The notes under the pieces: generated by a model
What the model saw: only the letters and a program-made list of their open reading frames with translations
The model's database searches: none
What the model was told of the DNA's origin: nothing
Shown: positions 25,491 to 43,238 of the stretch, in pieces
Numbering within the stretch: the stretch's first letter is position 1
Layout of the letters: every line of letters begins with the position of its first letter
Sequence record: NC_028925.1
Length of the DNA stretch: 64,000 nt
Reading direction: 5' to 3' (one strand)
DNA from: Escherichia phage vB_EcoM_VR25
Position numbers and translations under genes: made by a program

Positions 25491-25790
25491 TTAAAAAGAA
25501 CCAGAGCCTTTAATTGTGTTCTGGCGACCTTTATTTTCGAATTCAGAATGGTCGATTTCGTATGCTTGTGCTACGCCAAAGGCCTTTTTAACTTTAGATA
25601 AAGAACCTTTAGATGTAACAATATTAAAAGTATTGCCTTTGGTAAAATCAACCAAATCCACTTGCACACCCTGTTTACCGAGGCTTGCTACAATAGCATC
25701 AACATATTGTTGGTCTAAATTGCCTTGAACCCCAATTTGAAATGCTTTAGGAACTTTGGCTTCTGTGATAAATTCTTGATAAGTTAACAT
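25491..25790 (-). CDS. Internal-protein-like protein with N-terminal capsid targeting sequence (CTS), 99 aa
   Basis: Starts MLTYQEFITE, matching the T4 IP capsid targeting sequence MKTYQEFIAE; ATG start. Confidence 0.6.
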   Translation of the reverse strand: MLTYQEFITEAKVPKAFQIGVQGNLDQQYVDAIVASLGKQGVQVDLVDFTKGNTFNIVTSKGSLSKVKKAFGVAQAYEIDHSEFENKGRQNTIKGSGSF

Positions 25791-25819
25791 TATACACTAT
25801 CCCATCATAAAGTAAACAG

Positions 25820-26083
25820 TTACGCTTTACCGCCAGAAACAATACCAAAGGTCTCAAAGTCCCATTCAATATCGTCAACATCAACTTTCTTACCAGCAAC
25901 CACAAATGCGATTTCGCGACGTTTTGCATAGGTAACAATTTCTTTGCCATCGCCGCCAAAGAAAGAATAACCATTGCGCTTCATGGTGCCAAAGTCTTCA
26001 GCATCACCAGCGAAGGCACGGACTTTAAAAGCACCAGTAGGAGCTTTAGCAGATTCAGTAATAAATTCTTGATAAGTTTTCAT
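25820..26083 (-). CDS. Internal-protein-like protein with CTS, 87 aa
   Basis: Starts MKTYQEFITE; ATG start. Confidence 0.65.
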   Translation of the reverse strand: MKTYQEFITESAKAPTGAFKVRAFAGDAEDFGTMKRNGYSFFGGDGKEIVTYAKRREIAFVVAGKKVDVDDIEWDFETFGIVSGGKA

Positions 26084-26096
26084 AATGTCTCTTTAG

Positions 26097-26411
26097 TTAA
26101 GCTTTAGGGAAATCGCGCAAAAACGCATCATAAAGTTTATTACCAATGCGACGGAATGCTTTTGCAGCATGAACGTTATCTGGGTTTGCAATTTTAATCT
26201 GCATTACATGACTACCAGCCCATGATTTAGCTTCGTCATAATAACCTTTAATTTCTTTAATAGTCTTGCGTTTTCCACCAGGACCATCAACAGTAATTTT
26301 CCACGAACCAGTGCTTGTTTCACTTGGTGGGGTTAACTGTTCAATCCAGACATAACCACCTTCAACACGTTGTTGAGTAGATTCAGTAATAAATTCTTGA
26401 TAAGTTTTCAT
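26097..26411 (-). CDS. Internal-protein-like protein with CTS, about 104 aa
   Basis: In-frame MKTYQEFITE at 26411 (track ORF starts 4 codons earlier); preceded by TATAAT and leader. Confidence 0.6.
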   Translation of the reverse strand: MKTYQEFITESTQQRVEGGYVWIEQLTPPSETSTGSWKITVDGPGGKRKTIKEIKGYYDEAKSWAGSHVMQIKIANPDNVHAAKAFRRIGNKLYDAFLRDFPKA

Positions 26412-26458
26412 TTTATATTCCATGTTTGGTTGATAAAATCATTATACAACCTTTTTAG

Positions 26459-26875
26459 TTAAGCGTACACAGCTTTCCCATAGTATTTGTACCAGGTAGG
26501 CTTTTGAGAAATTTTCTCATTCAGTCTGGATTGACTGATTTCAATTGACCAGATTGATGGTTGATAATCATTCTTCCATTCATCAGGAATATCATTTAAA
26601 TCTTGGGTAGAAATATCTTTTATATTAAACCCTCGCTTTAAACATTCAGCAATAAGTTCTTGATGGCGGTTTTTAAGGAACAAAAGCTTATCATAAAAGA
26701 AGGTGACATGACCAGTTCCTAAAAGAAAAGATGATGGGATTTTAAAGTCAGACACCTTTTTACCATTTTGTACATGCTTACGAACAGCCCCAAACACGCG
26801 AGGAAGCTCACGGTATTCAGCCATAAGGTGTTGGTCAGCAAGTTCAGATACCAGGGTTAAATTAATGCGAGTCAT
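26459..26875 (-). CDS. denV: Endonuclease V (pyrimidine-dimer DNA glycosylase) DenV
   Basis: 138 aa, ATG start; [35 protein letters not shown]... near-identical to T4 DenV. Confidence 0.95.
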
Positions 26876-26904
26876 GTTTGTTCCTCCAAGTAGTTGATGG
26901 GATA

Positions 26905-26934
26905 ATAATACATCAATACGAGGAGGTTGTAAAC
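26905..26934 (-). promoter_or_regulatory. Early promoter upstream of denV
   Basis: Minus strand GTTTAC-18 nt-TATTAT then leader TCCCATCAACTACTTGGAGG; -35 overlaps the upstream stop. Confidence 0.55.
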
Positions 26935-27216
26935 TTATTTTGTGGAAGCAGCCGAGATATATTTTTCAAGACGCTGTTTCATCAGCGAGCCGTTCTTAGC
27001 GATTTCTTCCGGTTTATCGCACATACGCAATAGAGCTTCAAGCTTAGTGATATCAGATGTCCGCTCAAATTTGCGAGTATCTACCTTACTAGCAAGTTCG
27101 GAAATACGCGCTAACAGACTTTCGGCTTCTACCAAAGCTGTGCCCAGCTTAGTTGCAAATGCGTCAGTAGCTTCATTAAGAGTGGTCACGGTCAAAAATT
27201 CATTATAGGTTTTCAT
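26935..27216 (-). CDS. Internal-protein-like protein with divergent CTS, 93 aa
   Basis: Starts [10 protein letters not shown]...; ATG start; 3-prime to gene e as ipIII is in T4. Confidence 0.55.
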
Positions 27217-35985: not shown

Positions 35986-36026
35986 TTTATTCTCCAGTGT
36001 TTTATTTGGTAACTCAGTATGGGATA

Positions 36027-36055
36027 ATTATACACTATCCCACCTGGAAGTAAAA
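36027..36055 (-). promoter_or_regulatory. Early promoter cassette
   Basis: Minus strand TTTTAC-17 nt-TATAAT then conserved leader. Confidence 0.5.
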
Positions 36056-36067
36056 CACTTTTCTCAA

Positions 36068-36493
36068 TTATTTTTGAGCTTTGCGGAAGTTGGAAGCATA
36101 AGACTGAACAACAGTCTTTTTGATATCATGGGTGGTAACCAGAACATCAATCAGAGCGCGGCGTGCTGCATTATCATTCATATCAATTTCTGCAAATGCC
36201 TGGAAGCAAATGTCACGGGCGTTACCAGATTTGGACTGGATTTTTTCTTCTTTAACTTCTTCAATTGGGAATTCAATCATTTCAGCTTGGATTAATTCAA
36301 TGATGGATTCTTTTGACTGTTTGGTGTTTACCTTCAGTTCAGAATTAAGGGACTTAGCGATGGCAACAATCTGGGTTGAAGTCAGATGGATAAGTGCATC
36401 TTCACGAATACAGATTTCACATACTTCGTCGGCAACCATTTTGTTAGTGATGCGGGTAACAGAGAATGCAGAGGTCAGGGTCAGAAAGTTCAT
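36068..36493 (-). CDS. Hypothetical protein, about 141 aa, C-terminal ...VQSYASNFRKAQK
   Basis: Internal Met (MNFLTLTSAF...) consistent with the promoter cassette at 36544-36574; paralogous C-terminus to 35172..35615. Confidence 0.45.
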   Translation of the reverse strand: MNFLTLTSAFSVTRITNKMVADEVCEICIREDALIHLTSTQIVAIAKSLNSELKVNTKQSKESIIELIQAEMIEFPIEEVKEEKIQSKSGNARDICFQAFAEIDMNDNAARRALIDVLVTTHDIKKTVVQSYASNFRKAQK

Positions 36494-36543
36494 TTTATTT
36501 CTCCAAAGTTTTGTTTGATTCAGTGTGTAACTCAGTATGGAAT

Positions 36544-36574
36544 CATTATGCACCCGGTCAATTCGGATGTACAC
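36544..36574 (-). promoter_or_regulatory. Early promoter cassette
   Basis: Minus strand GTGTAC-18 nt-CATAAT then leader GATTCCATACTGAGTTACACACTGAATC. Confidence 0.5.
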
Positions 36575-36610
36575 TACTTTTTGAAGAAAATTTCAAATTT
36601 ATTCGGGGTA

Positions 36611-36640
36611 TAAAAAAGCCCCAACCTTTCGGAAGGGGCT
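36611..36640 (-). terminator. Rho-independent terminator downstream of the tRNA/small-RNA region
   Basis: AGCCCC...GGGGCT stem (6 GC-rich bp, 12-nt loop) followed by U6 on the minus-strand transcript. Confidence 0.55.
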
Positions 36641-36689
36641 AAGCCTTGCGGCAACCTTGTCGGGGTTCCACCTGCTAGGCAAGTGTTTG

Positions 36690-36770
36690 TACGAAACGCC
36701 GGGATTTGAACCCGGTTATCAAGTAGTTGACGCTACTCAATATTTTTAAAAGGCCATATCTCGACCATAT
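36690..36770 (-). ncRNA. tRNA-like structured RNA candidate (non-canonical)
   Basis: Perfect T-arm-like CCGGG-TTCAAAT-CCCGG and a second 6-bp hairpin, but no acceptor stem or 7-nt anticodon loop could be folded; in an ORF-free 300-nt stretch. Confidence 0.25.
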
Positions 36771-36957
36771 CCGAACGTTCCGTCAAAAACGCCACTCGGC
36801 TTACGGCAAAGATATTTCCTCGAATCGTTAATTAGGTGCGCCGTTTCAGCTGTGAAATAAGGGACTTTAAGAGGTCAACTCATGTACGCCTTAAAATCGG
36901 GTCTTATTCAGGGAACTTCAGTCCGACGACTTACCGGTAGCGACCCGGCTTCTTGTT

Positions 36958-37033
36958 TGGTCGAGACAGTAGGGATCGAACCTACGACCTAGGACTTAGA
37001 AGGTCCTTGCTCTTCCTTCTGAGCTATGCCTCG
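36958..37033 (-). tRNA. tRNA-Arg (anticodon UCU), CCA encoded
   Basis: Hand-folded cloverleaf: acceptor CGAGGCA/TGTCTCG, D-stem GCTC/GAGC, anticodon stem AGGAC/GTCCT with loop CTTCTAA, T-arm GTAGG-TTCGATC-CCTAC, discriminator A. Confidence 0.85.
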
Positions 37034-37167
37034 TGTTTGTTCATAGCGGGGTGGACTCGAACCACCAATATTAAGTCACTCATGCTCCAAGCATGCTAGG
37101 GCACTTACCCCGGACGGAATCGAACCGCATCTACAATACCTATCGCCATGATAATTTAAAATAAGTT
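37034..37167 (-). ncRNA. tRNA-like structured RNA region between the two tRNAs (non-canonical)
   Basis: Two T-arm-like motifs (GCGG-TTCGATT-CCGT and GGTGG-TTCGAGT-CCACC) and an anticodon-like hairpin CATG-CTTGGAG-CATG, but no consistent 7-bp acceptor stem. Confidence 0.25.
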
Positions 37168-37241
37168 TGGTGGCCCTGGGTGGAATCGAACCACCATCCA
37201 GCGATTATGAGTCGCTCGCTTGACCGTCCAGCTACAGGGCC
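37168..37241 (-). tRNA. tRNA with CAU anticodon (Met, or Ile if C34 is modified), CCA encoded
   Basis: Hand-folded cloverleaf: acceptor GGCCCTG/CAGGGCC, anticodon stem AGCGA/TCGCT with loop CTCATAA, T-arm GGTGG-TTCGATT-CCACC, discriminator A. Confidence 0.8.
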
Positions 37242-37319
37242 TTAATTCTATTATGAAAGGCTCTTTGAGGGAAGAACCTTTGGTAATAGAGGGTACTTAT
37301 TAATAATAACGCGTTTTTA

Positions 37320-37805
37320 TTAAAGCATATCAAGTGCTTTAACGTTCGGAATTTGGATTTCTTCTTCGATGATGTATAATTTTACCCACGAAACTACGCG
37401 CATAAAATCGCTATCATATTCCACTGGCTCGCCCAGTAATTCCTGGAGAGAATATAATAATTCAAATTCCTGGTCATTGTCACCTTCAACCAGGTTTTCC
37501 AGATTTTCAATACAAAGTGTTTTGTTAATGAATTCAGAAGTTAATTGACCAGATTTTACACCAGATTCAATGTGTGCGATAACCAAGTCTTTAACTACGT
37601 CCCATTCCGAATTGCCACATTTATCTGGATAGTTACAATGAGAACCTTGAAAAAGTTCCAGGATATATTTGTACTGCTGGATTTCTTGTTCTTCTACACC
37701 AAATATTGTCTGGGTTTTATAGTTGTCACCATCATTTTCCCAGGTTTCAATTTCAATCACATAACCTTTAGGGATGGTCTGACCAAATTTAATATTCATA
37801 ATCAA
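37320..37805 (-). CDS. Hypothetical acidic protein, 161 aa
   Basis: Track ORF. Confidence 0.5.
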   Translation of the reverse strand: MIMNIKFGQTIPKGYVIEIETWENDGDNYKTQTIFGVEEQEIQQYKYILELFQGSHCNYPDKCGNSEWDVVKDLVIAHIESGVKSGQLTSEFINKTLCIENLENLVEGDNDQEFELLYSLQELLGEPVEYDSDFMRVVSWVKLYIIEEEIQIPNVKALDML

Positions 37806-38185
37806 CCTTCATCAACAATAGTATGGGTATTGGCATTAACAATCTGCCACCAGTCAAAACGGTTAGAACCATAACATGGTTTATTCTCGTTTTCTTTAAT
37901 GATATCACGCAGTTCATCTTCAGTCGCAGCTTTTGCGATTAGGTCTGCATAACCGCCACGGGGATAATAGCTATCGCCAGCAAACAGTAAAAAGTTTGTT
38001 TTGATATTCTTGAATTCTTCAAGAGTAATAACCGTTCCAGATGGTTGTTGAACAATATCTACGTAACTATACCCCAATTGCTGGGCTTTATCTACCGCTT
38101 CAAGCAGGGTGTCATGTGCCCACCCAATTTGACATTCTGGTTTGTCAGATGGGTTTGCCTGATAATCCGCATACACTTTATACAT
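37802..38185 (-). CDS. Hypothetical protein, about 127 aa
   Basis: Track ORF 37802..38233 starts at TTG; first ATG at 38185 (MYKVYADYQ...) abuts the upstream stop. Confidence 0.45.
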   Translation of the reverse strand: MYKVYADYQANPSDKPECQIGWAHDTLLEAVDKAQQLGYSYVDIVQQPSGTVITLEEFKNIKTNFLLFAGDSYYPRGGYADLIAKAATEDELRDIIKENENKPCYGSNRFDWWQIVNANTHTIVDEG

Positions 38186-38186
38186 T

Positions 38187-38372
38187 TTACTCACCTTTAG
38201 ACATTTTATCCATAACGAAAGAGATTGAACCAATTAAGAATGCAACTACTAAAGAGATTATATTCTCAGAAGTTGAAAGCATATTCAACATAAAGCCAGC
38301 AAACATGCTAAAACCAAAAGCGGTAACAGCAACAAGGGCAGTAACATTTCTAATTAATTCACAACGTTTCAT
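38187..38372 (-). CDS. Small membrane protein, 61 aa
   Basis: ATG preceded by GAGGAG and promoter cassette; two hydrophobic segments. Confidence 0.45.
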   Translation of the reverse strand: MKRCELIRNVTALVAVTAFGFSMFAGFMLNMLSTSENIISLVVAFLIGSISFVMDKMSKGE

Positions 38373-38400
38373 TTTATTCTCCTCATTAGTTGATGGGATA

Positions 38401-38431
38401 ATTATACACTATCCCATATCTAAAAGTACAC
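38401..38431 (-). promoter_or_regulatory. Early promoter cassette
   Basis: Minus strand GTGTAC-19 nt-TATAAT then leader TATCCCATCAACTAATGAGGAG. Confidence 0.5.
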
Positions 38432-38665
38432 TTATTTTTTACGGAAAATTGATTTATACTTGTTAGCCCATTTCTCGATAACTTCTGCCGGACCCTGGAT
38501 AACAAAATAGTCCCCAAACTCTTCACCGCCGAGCTGACCGTAATTATCTAAGGCGTCGCGGAGAGTTCCATAAGGCATTTCGCCCATTTTATCTTTCTTG
38601 CCGGTGTAAATGAATTGCACTTTAACATCAGCAGTTTCATTAATAAATTCTTGATAAGTTTTCAT
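38432..38665 (-). CDS. Internal-protein-like protein with CTS, 77 aa
   Basis: Starts MKTYQEFINE; ATG start. Confidence 0.65.
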   Translation of the reverse strand: MKTYQEFINETADVKVQFIYTGKKDKMGEMPYGTLRDALDNYGQLGGEEFGDYFVIQGPAEVIEKWANKYKSIFRKK

Positions 38666-38690
38666 GTTGTCTCCAGTAGTTGATGGGATA

Positions 38691-38722
38691 ATTATACTGC
38701 ATTTATCCCATCGTGTACATTA
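38691..38722 (-). promoter_or_regulatory. Early promoter cassette
   Basis: Minus strand -10 TATAAT with weaker -35 (ATGTAC), then leader TATCCCATCAACTACTGGAGAC. Confidence 0.4.
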
Positions 38723-39019
38723 CATTTTTGAACCGCGAATTACACCATAAGCGGCGAAGTCGTCAGTGATATTTTTAGGGGTGTTCTTACCAGTTTCAAT
38801 ATATGCAATGCTGGATTTCTGACTAAATGAGGTAATTTTATTATAGTTAGAGTCAAGGAAGGTATAACCATTTTTACGCAGCTGGTCAAAGTCTTCAGCG
38901 TCGCCTTTACCTTTGAAGTCAACCCATTTGTATGTGTTTTTCTTCTGAAGGCCCAGAGGCCAAGTTTTTGCTTCTGCCAGGTAATTATTTTCTACCAAAA
39001 ATTCGTGGAACGTTTGCAT
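38720..39019 (-). CDS. Internal-protein-like protein with CTS, 99 aa
   Basis: Starts MQTFHEFLVE; ATG start. Confidence 0.6.
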   Translation of the reverse strand: MQTFHEFLVENNYLAEAKTWPLGLQKKNTYKWVDFKGKGDAEDFDQLRKNGYTFLDSNYNKITSFSQKSSIAYIETGKNTPKNITDDFAAYGVIRGSKM

Positions 39020-39027
39020 TTGAAATC

Positions 39028-39300
39028 CTATTTTAGATAAATTGCGTATTTTTTATAACCAGCTGTCTCATGGCGGAGACCCTTGTCATTGGCAAAACGC
39101 TCAATGTTGTTGATTTGGTTCTGGTCAAGTTCAGAGATGTCAAACGCGAAAAAGTTGCGTTTGTTACCAATTGTTATATGGTCAGTCAAGTCAATGCTGT
39201 ACAGGTGATTGATATTGTCAATCATAGCTTTGACTGCTTTACTAATTTTTACTTCTTCATTCAGTTGGGACTCGTTGAAAAGTTCATTAAAAGTTTTCAT
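39028..39300 (-). CDS. Internal-protein-like protein with CTS, 90 aa
   Basis: Starts MKTFNELFNE; ATG start. Confidence 0.6.
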   Translation of the reverse strand: MKTFNELFNESQLNEEVKISKAVKAMIDNINHLYSIDLTDHITIGNKRNFFAFDISELDQNQINNIERFANDKGLRHETAGYKKYAIYLK

Positions 39301-39308
39301 AAGAAACC

Positions 39309-39641
39309 TTATTTATACAGTTTAGCTAGTTCTTTACGTCCGCGAGCAGACATAATGAATTGTTCATCACCAATTTTGAAATAAGCCATACCGCCGTCAA
39401 CAGCGATGCCAATTTCTTTAGTACCTTCTTTGCCTTTCCACTTGCCACCAGATTTCAGGACAGCTTCAACTGCAGCTTTGGAATATTTGGACGTTTGAAA
39501 ACGTTCATTACCAATCTGAAAGAAAACACCATCTGCATTTTTGGATAAACCAAATTTCAGAGAGCCTTCACTATCATCAATTGATTTGGTTTCATTGATG
39601 GCGGATTCGGCTAAAAACTCGTTATAAGTCTTGATGTTCAT
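39309..39641 (-). CDS. Internal-protein-like protein with CTS, about 110 aa
   Basis: In-frame MNIKTYNEFLAE at 39641 preceded by GGAG; track ORF begins 11 codons upstream. Confidence 0.6.
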   Translation of the reverse strand: MNIKTYNEFLAESAINETKSIDDSEGSLKFGLSKNADGVFFQIGNERFQTSKYSKAAVEAVLKSGGKWKGKEGTKEIGIAVDGGMAYFKIGDEQFIMSARGRKELAKLYK

Positions 39642-39701
39642 TTTAACTCCGTTTGTTCGTGGGTGTAGGAACATAATACTGTGCCTACACTCATTTGTAC
39701 A

Positions 39702-40386
<685 letters not shown>

Positions 40387-40387
<1 letters not shown>

Positions 40388-41064
40388 TATATTACCTTAT
40401 TAATTTTATCAAAAAGTTCTTCGAGTGTGCCATCGTTTTTAATAACAATGTCACTAGCTAGTGGTGGAAGTCCAGCTTCCGTAATGTGTGTATCAGTAGA
40501 ATGATTTGCTTCATCGCGTTCTACAAAGATTATTGTAGCACCCATCGCCCGAAGCGAATCAAGTTCGTTCTTTTGGCGAACATCTGGGACAACGTAATAT
40601 TTATATCCAGAATAGAGGTTGTCAAGATAATCGCATGCAAAAGTTTTAATCCAAAACATGCTGTCGAACTCTGTACAAACGATGTCAGTTCCAAGGGTCT
40701 GCATGAAACGTCTAACTGTCCAGGGCTCAACATTATTTAGTGTGTGAAATTCAATGATTTTACGAACCATATCTGGATTCGGAAGGTCAAGATTATATTG
40801 CTGTTTCAACCATTCAAGAGCGTCAACCAGAAGAATATGAGCTTCAGTGTTGTTCATTATCAAGGTTTTTTCACGGTCATAACCTTGTCCATCAAAATTT
40901 TCCAGGGTCAAATTGTGTGGCAGGTCTTGACGAACCCACGCTTTATAAAGCGCTTCTTTAATTGGACCAGCAAGTTGCCACTTTGTTCCGTTTTGACTAA
41001 TAACATAATCAGCAGTCGTATCTTTACCACTGCGTTTTTTACCCACAATCGCAATTAATTTCAT
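40387..41064 (-). CDS. 1: Deoxynucleoside monophosphate kinase gp1
   Basis: 225 aa, ATG start; MKLIAIVGKKRSGKDTTADY P-loop; very similar to T4 gp1. Confidence 0.9.
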
Positions 41065-41745: not shown

Positions 41746-42420
41746 TTATTTTATTAATGTGTTAAGTCTTAGCTTAGTCATAAACGGATAACGTTCCAAC
41801 ATTGGCTTTACCCAGTATCGAGGATGCAATTCCTTTTTATATGCTAGGACCAACTCTCGAGCTTGCTCGACGGTATCAACTCCGAAGTTTTTACACATTT
41901 CTTGCCTATCTTTTTCCCACCGGCGCTTTCTCAATTCATCCTGAATCTCTTTATTTTTAAAATGTCCATTATTGCGAGAATGTTTTGTGCCCTTGGTTGG
42001 ACTGTAATGTCTTCCTTTGACAAACCCATCCGGAACATCTTCCCATGGAAATAGTTTTATCGATTTGACACCATTAGTAAAGTAAACTTTACCGGTTTGA
42101 CTTTTAGAAATATTGTCAGCGTGTCTACGTCTTAACCAGCCAAATAATTTATTATTACGTTTCAAATACTTGCTTGACTGACTCATAGATGTGGCGGCAA
42201 AACTTAAACCTGGATTTGTAGGATATATTTTAACCAATAGTTGATGGGCTACATAATGTTCCTCGGGAGTCAAATCGACTAGGTTATCAGGAGCATTTGA
42301 ACCACCCATACATTTCGGAATGATGTGATGAGATTCTTTATATGAAATCAGGACCCTGTTACGGGCCCTTTCAATTAACGATGAATATATAAACTGATAA
42401 TTCAAAGTGAATTTCTCCAT
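41746..42420 (-). CDS. Free-standing HNH homing endonuclease, 224 aa
   Basis: ATG start; HNH motif [30 protein letters not shown]; inserted between genes 2 and 3; start overlaps the last 19 nt of gene 2. Confidence 0.8.
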
Positions 42421-43238
42421 ACTTTCTGTGAAGAAAATCTTTTGCCTTTTGAAAAAAACTGCTGAAGGGGAAGTAATACCACATTTGCCCAGTCGCTGGG
42501 CTTGATTTCAGTGATAGTACCTTTTATATTACCAGGTATATATGCTTTAATCATCTGGTCAGCCCCTTTAAATCCCTTCACCTTTGACCAATCAATCTTC
42601 AGATGAGTCTTGTTCGTAATCGTAGGAGTATTAGCATATTGCTTAAGAAGTTCCTCAAGGAACTCTTGACGCGCCTTCGGTGGAATATAGTGCAAGTTCA
42701 AACCATACATCAAATTGTGTTTGCCTAACCCAAGATAAATGATTAACGGATATTTGTCCCAGTATGGAAGAGTATCCTTATGCTTTGCATCATAGATATA
42801 AGCATAAATCTTACCTGGTTGAGGTTTAGCCGTTACGTGTCCTCTGACAGCTTTCTTAATTGTCTCTGCGAACCATCTGGCAGATTTGGTGTTGCTTGCA
42901 GCGCCTTCGTTAGCAATCTTATCTCTTATACTCTTTCTAAAGCTATTCACCATTATCAGTTGGCGTTCAGTCTTCGTAAGTTTACCAGCAGGTTTCTTTT
43001 TGAGTTTGGATACTTTATAAGCAGTCTGAATTCTCGAATGATATCTTGACATGCTTTTGGTAAAGGTTGAATAGTTGATTCCTTTCTCTTCAGCAAACTT
43101 TTTCGAGGTCATTCCCTTTTCTTTTGCTGTATAAAATTCAACCCCTATCTCAACCCATTGTTGTTCGGATTTACTGGGTTTTGGACCTGGTTTATCTGCA
43201 GATTCATTGATAAATGTAAAAATACTCATCCTTTCCAT
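42402..43238 (-). CDS. 2: DNA end protector protein gp2
   Basis: 278 aa, ATG start; order and length match T4 gp2 (274 aa). Confidence 0.8.

Follow-up and report, generated by a model that had tools for sequence, protein, structure and literature searches.

Between the genes 57B and trna.4 phage T4 carries ipI alone, the gene of an internal protein (IP), whereas the same interval of Escherichia phage vB_EcoM_VR25 (NC_028925.1) holds four consecutive open reading frames (ORFs) on the minus strand, at 38432-39641 of the 64,000 nucleotides (nt) analysed here (the window, to which the coordinates refer). What are these four genes, and are they IPs? A preliminary description had taken them for IPs with a capsid targeting sequence (CTS) at a place where T4 has a single ipI. 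The four ORFs are present on the minus strand with exactly the limits given there, and the statement about T4 is correct as well. Most probably the four genes are T4-type IP cassettes at a hyperplastic ipI locus of a Gaprivervirus. By Megablast the window belongs to this genus, with an identity over the locus of 97.7% to vB_EcoM_VR20 and of 98.3% to VR7. The locus is of a known kind, and three of its four genes carry the labels ip6, ip9 or "internal head protein" in the near-identical VR7 and VR20. The IP interpretation is supported but textbook, because the annotation of relatives and the literature already give it; the family of the fourth gene and the Ip9 module may exceed the existing annotation.

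Targeting sequences, protease sites and selection

The genes are called A (Ip6; 38432-38665, 77 amino acids (aa)), B (38720-39019, 99 aa), C (Ip9; 39028-39300, 90 aa) and D (39309-39641, 110 aa). With slashes marking predicted protease cuts, their proteins begin MKTYQEFINE/TADV (A), MQTFHEFLVE/NNYLAE/A (B), MKTFNELFNESQLNE/EV (C, N-terminus MKTFNELFNE) and MNIKTYNEFLAE/SAINE/T (D). All four resemble MKTYQEFIAE and fit the CTS pattern M(x0-2)[KQ]T[YF]xE[FL][ILF]xE. Applied to the 517 ATG-started frames of at least 60 aa in the window, this pattern matched 8, against an expectation of 0.0003 and no match in 100 shuffles. All eight starts are confined to the two classical IP loci, four in the array described here (array 2) and four in array 1. 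All eight share T3 and E6; they have Y or F at position 4, F or L at 7 and I, L or F at 8, and seven of them have E at position 10. The CTS of B, C and D are written in differing codons while the residues are conserved; thus selection acts on the CTS peptide.

Behind the tag follow sites for the prohead protease gp21. With the rule that gp21 cuts after [L/I]-x-E, which recovers the known 76-residue IPI* of T4, A is predicted to be cut at INE after residue 10, B at LVE (10) and LAE (16), C at LNE (15; the FNE at 10 is atypical) and D at LAE (12) and INE (17). The predicted mature proteins of 67, 83, 75 and 93 aa have isoelectric points (pI) of 7.8, 9.5, 8.3 and 9.5, respectively, and net charges of +0.4 to +4.8; none is acidic. 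The preliminary description had suggested a search for DNA mimics among the bodies. Mimicry of the Ocr or ArdA type is unsupported, the predicted mature forms being neutral to basic with no strongly acidic surface.

Each of the four genes has a Shine-Dalgarno-like sequence 6-7 nt before its ATG, and D, C and B, spaced by only 8 nt, appear to form one unit. Between B, C and D and their orthologues in further Gaprivervirus genomes there are 9-17 synonymous and 0-3 non-synonymous differences. The resulting ratio of non-synonymous to synonymous substitution rates (dN/dS) is 0.01-0.06 (B 0.04-0.05, C 0.01-0.04), and Acb1 falls in the same range; A has too few differences from its closest relatives for a ratio. 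To judge from these substitutions, B, C and D are under strong purifying selection and thus are not pseudogenes.

The bodies behind the tags

Gene A matches phrog_8111, "internal virion protein", in PHROGs (E-value 2e-51). It is 97% identical to VR7 ip6, is annotated in relatives as "similar to T6 Ip6" and has full-length homologues of 65-100% identity in 229 phage records. Gene B matches phrog_2667 (E 2e-21), and its equivalent VR7_gp154 bears the RefSeq label "internal head protein". Gene C, a match to phrog_7673 (E 3e-56), is 100% identical to ip9 of VR7 and VR20, annotated there as "similar to RB32 Ip9", and 78% identical to RB15 Ip9 (UniProt Q38376). The PHROGs category of A, B and C is head and packaging. 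The equivalent of D is the hypothetical VR7_gp156, in phrog_3966, for which PHROGs assigns no function category. Pfam and NCBIfam returned no meaningful family for A, B, C or D, and searches of PDB sequences, both single-sequence and profile, returned nothing.

The bodies had been called unrelated in the preliminary description. By BLASTP this holds for A-D among themselves, but B has a paralogue in array 1 (ORF 25820-26083; 34% identity, E 6e-12). A BLASTP match between A and D is weak (E 0.024, database of 16 sequences) and was put down to chance. The sharing of phrog_2667 by three ORFs, and of phrog_3966 by D and the array-1 ORF 26097, was attributed to lumping in PHROGs and not to homology, as the bodies do not align. 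In Shigella phage SP18 the B orthologue (locus L017:887-1141) is entered only as a misc_feature, "similar to hypothetical protein", which suggests from the record a disrupted copy and cassette decay in one lineage. The record of Escherichia phage EAWsc9 (locus L015) names the D orthologue "profilin" and that of B "homing endonuclease", apparently in error, because both genes are CTS-bearing and of IP type.

The body of Ip9 also occurs outside T4-like phages. Homologues of 72-74 aa without a CTS, 44-54% identical over the whole body, are found in Kagunavirus-like and Seuratvirus siphoviruses; in the Kagunavirus-like contigs the gene opens an operon of small genes after a gap of ~480 nt, divergent from the replication genes. 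In Kuttervirus the Ip9 body is the C-terminal domain of a 755-aa phrog_3867 protein, residues 678-737 of which match phrog_7673 (E 2e-8). Unlike C, these relatives have neither CTS nor linker. In the alignment the T4-like Ip9 equals the siphoviral protein plus CTS plus linker, and the siphoviral protein starts at most 3 residues from the predicted mature N-terminus of Ip9. The model of C is an alpha/beta sandwich (pLDDT 89.5, confident), and its fold gave no specific structural match. A homologue ~72-74% identical to Ip9, with the full T4-type CTS MKTFNEFISE, is present in Escherichia phage Av-05 of the Vequintavirinae (locus L011:1462-1725), whose record is not classified as T4-like; this could be a recent horizontal transfer or a chimeric assembly.

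The family of D comprises 54 phage records, and among the 40 listed almost all are named "hypothetical protein" and one "profilin". It ranges over Gaprivervirus, Kanagawavirus, Moonvirus, Gelderlandvirus, Winklervirus and phages of several other hosts. In four other genera all homologues examined start with MKTY.EF..E and lie in one or the other IP locus (PEi20 and CHI14 carry theirs at the ipI locus, Merlin and STP4-a theirs in the e-denV interval); the motif is kept in distant homologues with 51-63% body identity. In an exhaustive profile search of 1.8 billion representatives, the relatives of D were CTS-bearing phage proteins of ~100 aa; the two false positives, P0059 and P0062, are repetitive proteins and were rejected. 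A longer D start (121 aa, as annotated in VR7) was also rejected: its ATG lies inside a -10 box and has no Shine-Dalgarno sequence, while the 110-aa start has GGAG.

Cassette borders and turnover at the two IP loci

The locus has conserved borders. On the left lies 57B (39702-40157, minus strand), the anti-CBASS phosphodiesterase Acb1 (Pfam PF23474, E 1.2e-59), so the array does adjoin an Acb1-like gene, as the preliminary description had it; in gene orientation the four genes are downstream of it. On the right lies trna.4 (38187-38372, minus strand, 61 aa, phrog_1692). In gene orientation 57B, 57A, gene 1 and gene 3 follow one another away from the 5' side of the array, and trna.4 and trna.3 lie on its 3' side.

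Within these borders three PeSL-like (early-promoter/stem-loop) elements stand on the minus strand. The element before D (39642-39701) has TGTACA-N17-TATTAT with a hairpin over the -10 box, followed by GGAG (fold -14.3 kcal/mol, z -2.2). The element before A (38666-38719) has TGTACA-N17-TATAAT with a 10-bp GATGGGATAA/TTATCCCATC stem around the -10 box (z -3.1). The third, before trna.4 (38373-38431, z -2.6), is a direct repeat of the element before A; the two copies of 31 nt, 87% identical and 290 nt apart, lie on either side of A. PeSL cassettes (Arbiol et al. 2010, PMC2839356; Comeau et al. 2014, PMC4122927) are alike in the early promoter, the hairpin over the -10 box, the flanked variable ORFs and the presence or absence of cassettes between two repeats, and the promoters of the window are close to the T4/PST type TTTACW-N17-TAYWAT (Comeau et al. 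2014, PMC4122927). They differ in that the recombining repeat of the window, 95 nt long, takes in both the Shine-Dalgarno sequence and CTS codons, and in that the stems are AT-rich, unlike the G-run/C-run stems of the RB49 PeSL. Arbiol et al. (2010, PMC2839356) credit Repoila et al. (1994) with the observation of PeSL-like elements, built on T4 early promoters and AT-rich stem-loops, at the two highly variable IP loci, and put the known IP variants at more than 30.

VR7 and VR20 have a fifth CTS gene, gp153 (92 aa, MKTYQEFINE), between gp154 and ip6, which is absent from the window. In both phages a 95-nt segment made up of promoter, hairpin, Shine-Dalgarno sequence and CTS codons is duplicated around the gp153 cassette; in the window this segment occurs once, as the element at 38666-38719 together with the CTS codons of A. 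As far as the compared genomes tell, this duplication is the signature of homologous recombination between repeats. From 57B towards trna.4 the order is D - Ip9 - B - Ip6 in the window, D - Ip9 - gp154 - gp153 - Ip6 in VR7 and VR20, D - Ip9 - Ip5 - Ip6 in VR26, D - Ip9 - Ip5 - 94-aa gene - 73-aa gene in RZ, D - Ip9 - gp154 - Ip5 - 84-aa gene in EAWsc9 and D - Ip9 - gp154 (not annotated as a coding sequence) - gp153 in SP18. There are six cassette sets across six Gaprivervirus genomes; D and Ip9 are constant and the trna.4-proximal part is variable. We propose that the cassette borders consist of the early-promoter/stem-loop elements and the CTS codons, and that homologous recombination between these border elements adds, removes and swaps cassettes within and between the two IP loci.

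The second locus, array 1, has its four CTS genes on the minus strand around denV, next to the lysozyme gene e (25491-25790, 25820-26083, 26097-26411 and 26935-27216). The eight candidate IPs over two arrays given in the preliminary description agree with the eight CTS starts counted, four of which lie in 25491-27216. VR26 has Ip5 in place of B, and this Ip5 shares 51% identity with the array-1 ORF 26935-27216. The two arrays therefore share cassette families, as B resembles 25820-26083 and Ip5 resembles 26935-27216. Upstream of denV (26876-26934, minus strand) a PeSL-like GTTTACA...TATTAT forms the strongest hairpin of those folded (z -3.8). It contains TATCCCATCAACTA, identical to the array-2 elements, and one repeat family thus marks both IP loci.

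The ORF 25491-25790 starts with MLTYQEFITE, with K2 of the CTS replaced by L, and its ATG lies within a PeSL-like -10 box (25762-25800, minus strand; GTTTAC...ATGGGATAGTGTATAATG, a sequence also present upstream of trna.4). As the ATG is embedded in the -10 box, the promoter abuts the start and leaves neither leader nor Shine-Dalgarno sequence. From its sequence the start resembles a junction left by recombination within a cassette boundary.

Possible function of the cargo and competing explanations

How might such proteins act? By analogy with T4, the CTS (consensus M-K-T-Y/F-x-E-F/L-hydrophobic-x-E) would direct each precursor into the scaffolding core of the prohead, where gp21 would cut the tag off after [L/I]-x-E; B, C and D carry another such site 5-6 residues beyond the first. 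What remains, mature proteins of about 67, 83, 75 and 93 residues, would stay with the packed DNA and enter the host with it. IPs injected with the DNA would therefore act before phage gene expression. The T4 proteins Ip1, Ip2 and Ip3 are inhibitors of GmrSD Type IV restriction enzymes, each of a different one (Silas et al. 2025, PMC12373910), and IPs are described as highly diverse defence proteins sharing only the CTS (Rao and Black 2010, PMC3012670). By the same analogy each of A-D would most likely neutralise one specific host defence protein, probably a nuclease attacking modified DNA, although their targets are speculative. Cargo diversified against host defences, as the preliminary description had suggested, is thus the published view (PMC3012670, PMC12373910).

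The IP identity stated there is in keeping with the CTS, the [LI]xE sites, the ipI position and the variability among relatives. Genes A-D are like T4 Ip1-3 and Ip4-Ip12 of the T-even phages in CTS, [LI]xE sites, small size (67-110 aa), neutral-to-basic mature forms, location between 57B and trna.4, non-conserved bodies and cassette turnover; A and C belong to them by name and sequence as Ip6 and Ip9. The Ip4-Ip12 series was reportedly described by Repoila et al. in 1994, and Mullaney and Black are said to have worked on the CTS.

Several observations weigh against this reading. Gene D has two additional residues before K-T-Y and starts M-N-I-K-T-Y instead of the M-K-T-Y of the T4 IPs, and the first protease site of C, FNE, has F in place of L/I at P3. 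The genes of gp21 and the scaffold lie beyond the 64-kb window and are seen just in the relative VR20, where gp20, gp67, gp68, gp21, gp22 and gp23 are ~30 kb downstream of the locus. No body resembles IPI, IPII or IPIII of T4, and the check for anti-restriction folds that the preliminary description had advised gave no relation to IPI*, Ip2 or Ip3 in sequence or fold; the modelled bodies (C and D) are unlike the IPI* fold. In a literature search partly swamped by unrelated "IP6" papers we found no report of virion proteomics or injection for A-D. Late expression is assumed, because the sole exact match to the T4 late-promoter consensus, TATAAATA at 39310-39317 on the minus strand, is at chance frequency (6 sites of this type in the window, 5.5 expected). 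As a late promoter of Ip9 it was rejected: it overlaps the D stop codon 9 nt before the Ip9 start and would leave a leader of a few nt. Finally, a published screen of ip4-10 with 15 GmrSD groups yielded no inhibition that could be reproduced (Silas et al. 2025, PMC12373910), and for this reason GmrSD as the target of A-D is only an analogy.

Some of A-D, and D in particular, could instead be nucleic-acid-binding components of the head, loaded by their CTS, that neutralise charge, organise DNA or coat and protect the entering DNA. The body of D is an internal duplication, modelled by AlphaFold as twice four strands and a helix in a Whirly/PUR-like topology, and MRP1/2 and PURA are its two best Foldseek matches; matches to sliding clamps (TM 0.22-0.27) were disregarded. 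The predicted mature forms of B and D are basic, with a charge of about +4.5, and lysines of T4 IPs touch DNA phosphates (PMC3012670). However, the D model is of moderate confidence (pLDDT 75, 11 sequences), the Foldseek E-values are weak (7e-3 and 2e-2), and no PUR- or Whirly-related Pfam match was obtained with 11 members of the D family at E-values up to 10. The likeness to proteins of this fold (MRP1/MRP2 2gia, Pur-alpha 3k44, PBF-2 p24 1l3a, StWhy2 3n1h) is by predicted topology only, D being much smaller (93 residues) and without a relationship in sequence, and SsgA and OspE have the same fold but do not bind nucleic acids. Moreover, T4 Ip2 and Ip3 are equally basic yet are specific GmrSD inhibitors, and the rapid turnover of cassettes is more in line with an arms race than with a structural function. 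We therefore regard a role as DNA-binding head component as rather unlikely.

Much less probable still is that the shared N-terminus is a by-product of DNA-level homology between cassettes and that the proteins are early, cytoplasmic and never packaged. Strong early-type promoters stand before D and A, the near-identical CTS codons of A and two array-1 genes fall within the 95-nt repeat, and the siphoviral homologues of the Ip9 body work without a CTS, first in their operon. But a by-product of this kind would not account for residues conserved in B, C and D over differing codons, for the motif retained in distant D homologues or for the protease sites that come after the tag, and the CTS is experimentally sufficient for loading foreign proteins into T4 heads (PMC3012670). 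That the ORFs are pseudogenised fragments of one ancestral IP gene, as the preliminary description had considered, can practically be dismissed: they are short, have a common start and lack Pfam families, but the dN/dS of 0.01-0.06 from 9-17 synonymous differences refutes decay for B, C and D, between 54 and 229 phage records contain full-length homologues, C and D are modelled as compact folds (C confidently, D with moderate confidence), and the mutually unrelated bodies (BLASTP) show that A-D are not fragments of one gene.

Returning to T4-type IP cassettes, we tentatively put forward a combined proposal for the two genes that may exceed existing annotation, which we hold to be possible though doubtful: D could be an injected nucleic-acid-binding protein with a miniature Whirly/PUR-like domain, and Ip9 a portable domain made into pre-loaded cargo. 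If true, D would be a nucleic-acid binder rather than a nuclease-binding inhibitor, and T4-like phages would have turned a generic accessory module into cargo by adding a CTS and a cleavable linker. IPs are among the few phage counter-defence factors delivered ahead of gene expression, and targets are known for T4 Ip1-3 only. While the locus offers nothing new in kind, it provides candidates for target screens in Ip6, Ip9, the gp154-type protein and above all the D family. The CTS-bearing Ip9 and its CTS-less siphoviral homologue form a natural pair that could show what is gained from capsid pre-loading, and the cassette repeats illustrate the reshuffling of injected cargo in T4-like phages.

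Around the locus, two tRNA genes lie at 36958-37241, and no Rfam family besides tRNA was found within 36000-40500. Between gene 3 and the ORF 42402-43238, on the minus strand, lies an ORF of 224 aa (41746-42420) that contains an HNH-like motif. At the same place VR7 has a "putative mobile endonuclease (MobB-like)" and VR20 none, and the 224-aa ORF probably represents an inserted homing endonuclease gene. The ORF 42402-43238 is probably gene 2, to judge by synteny with VR7 and VR20.

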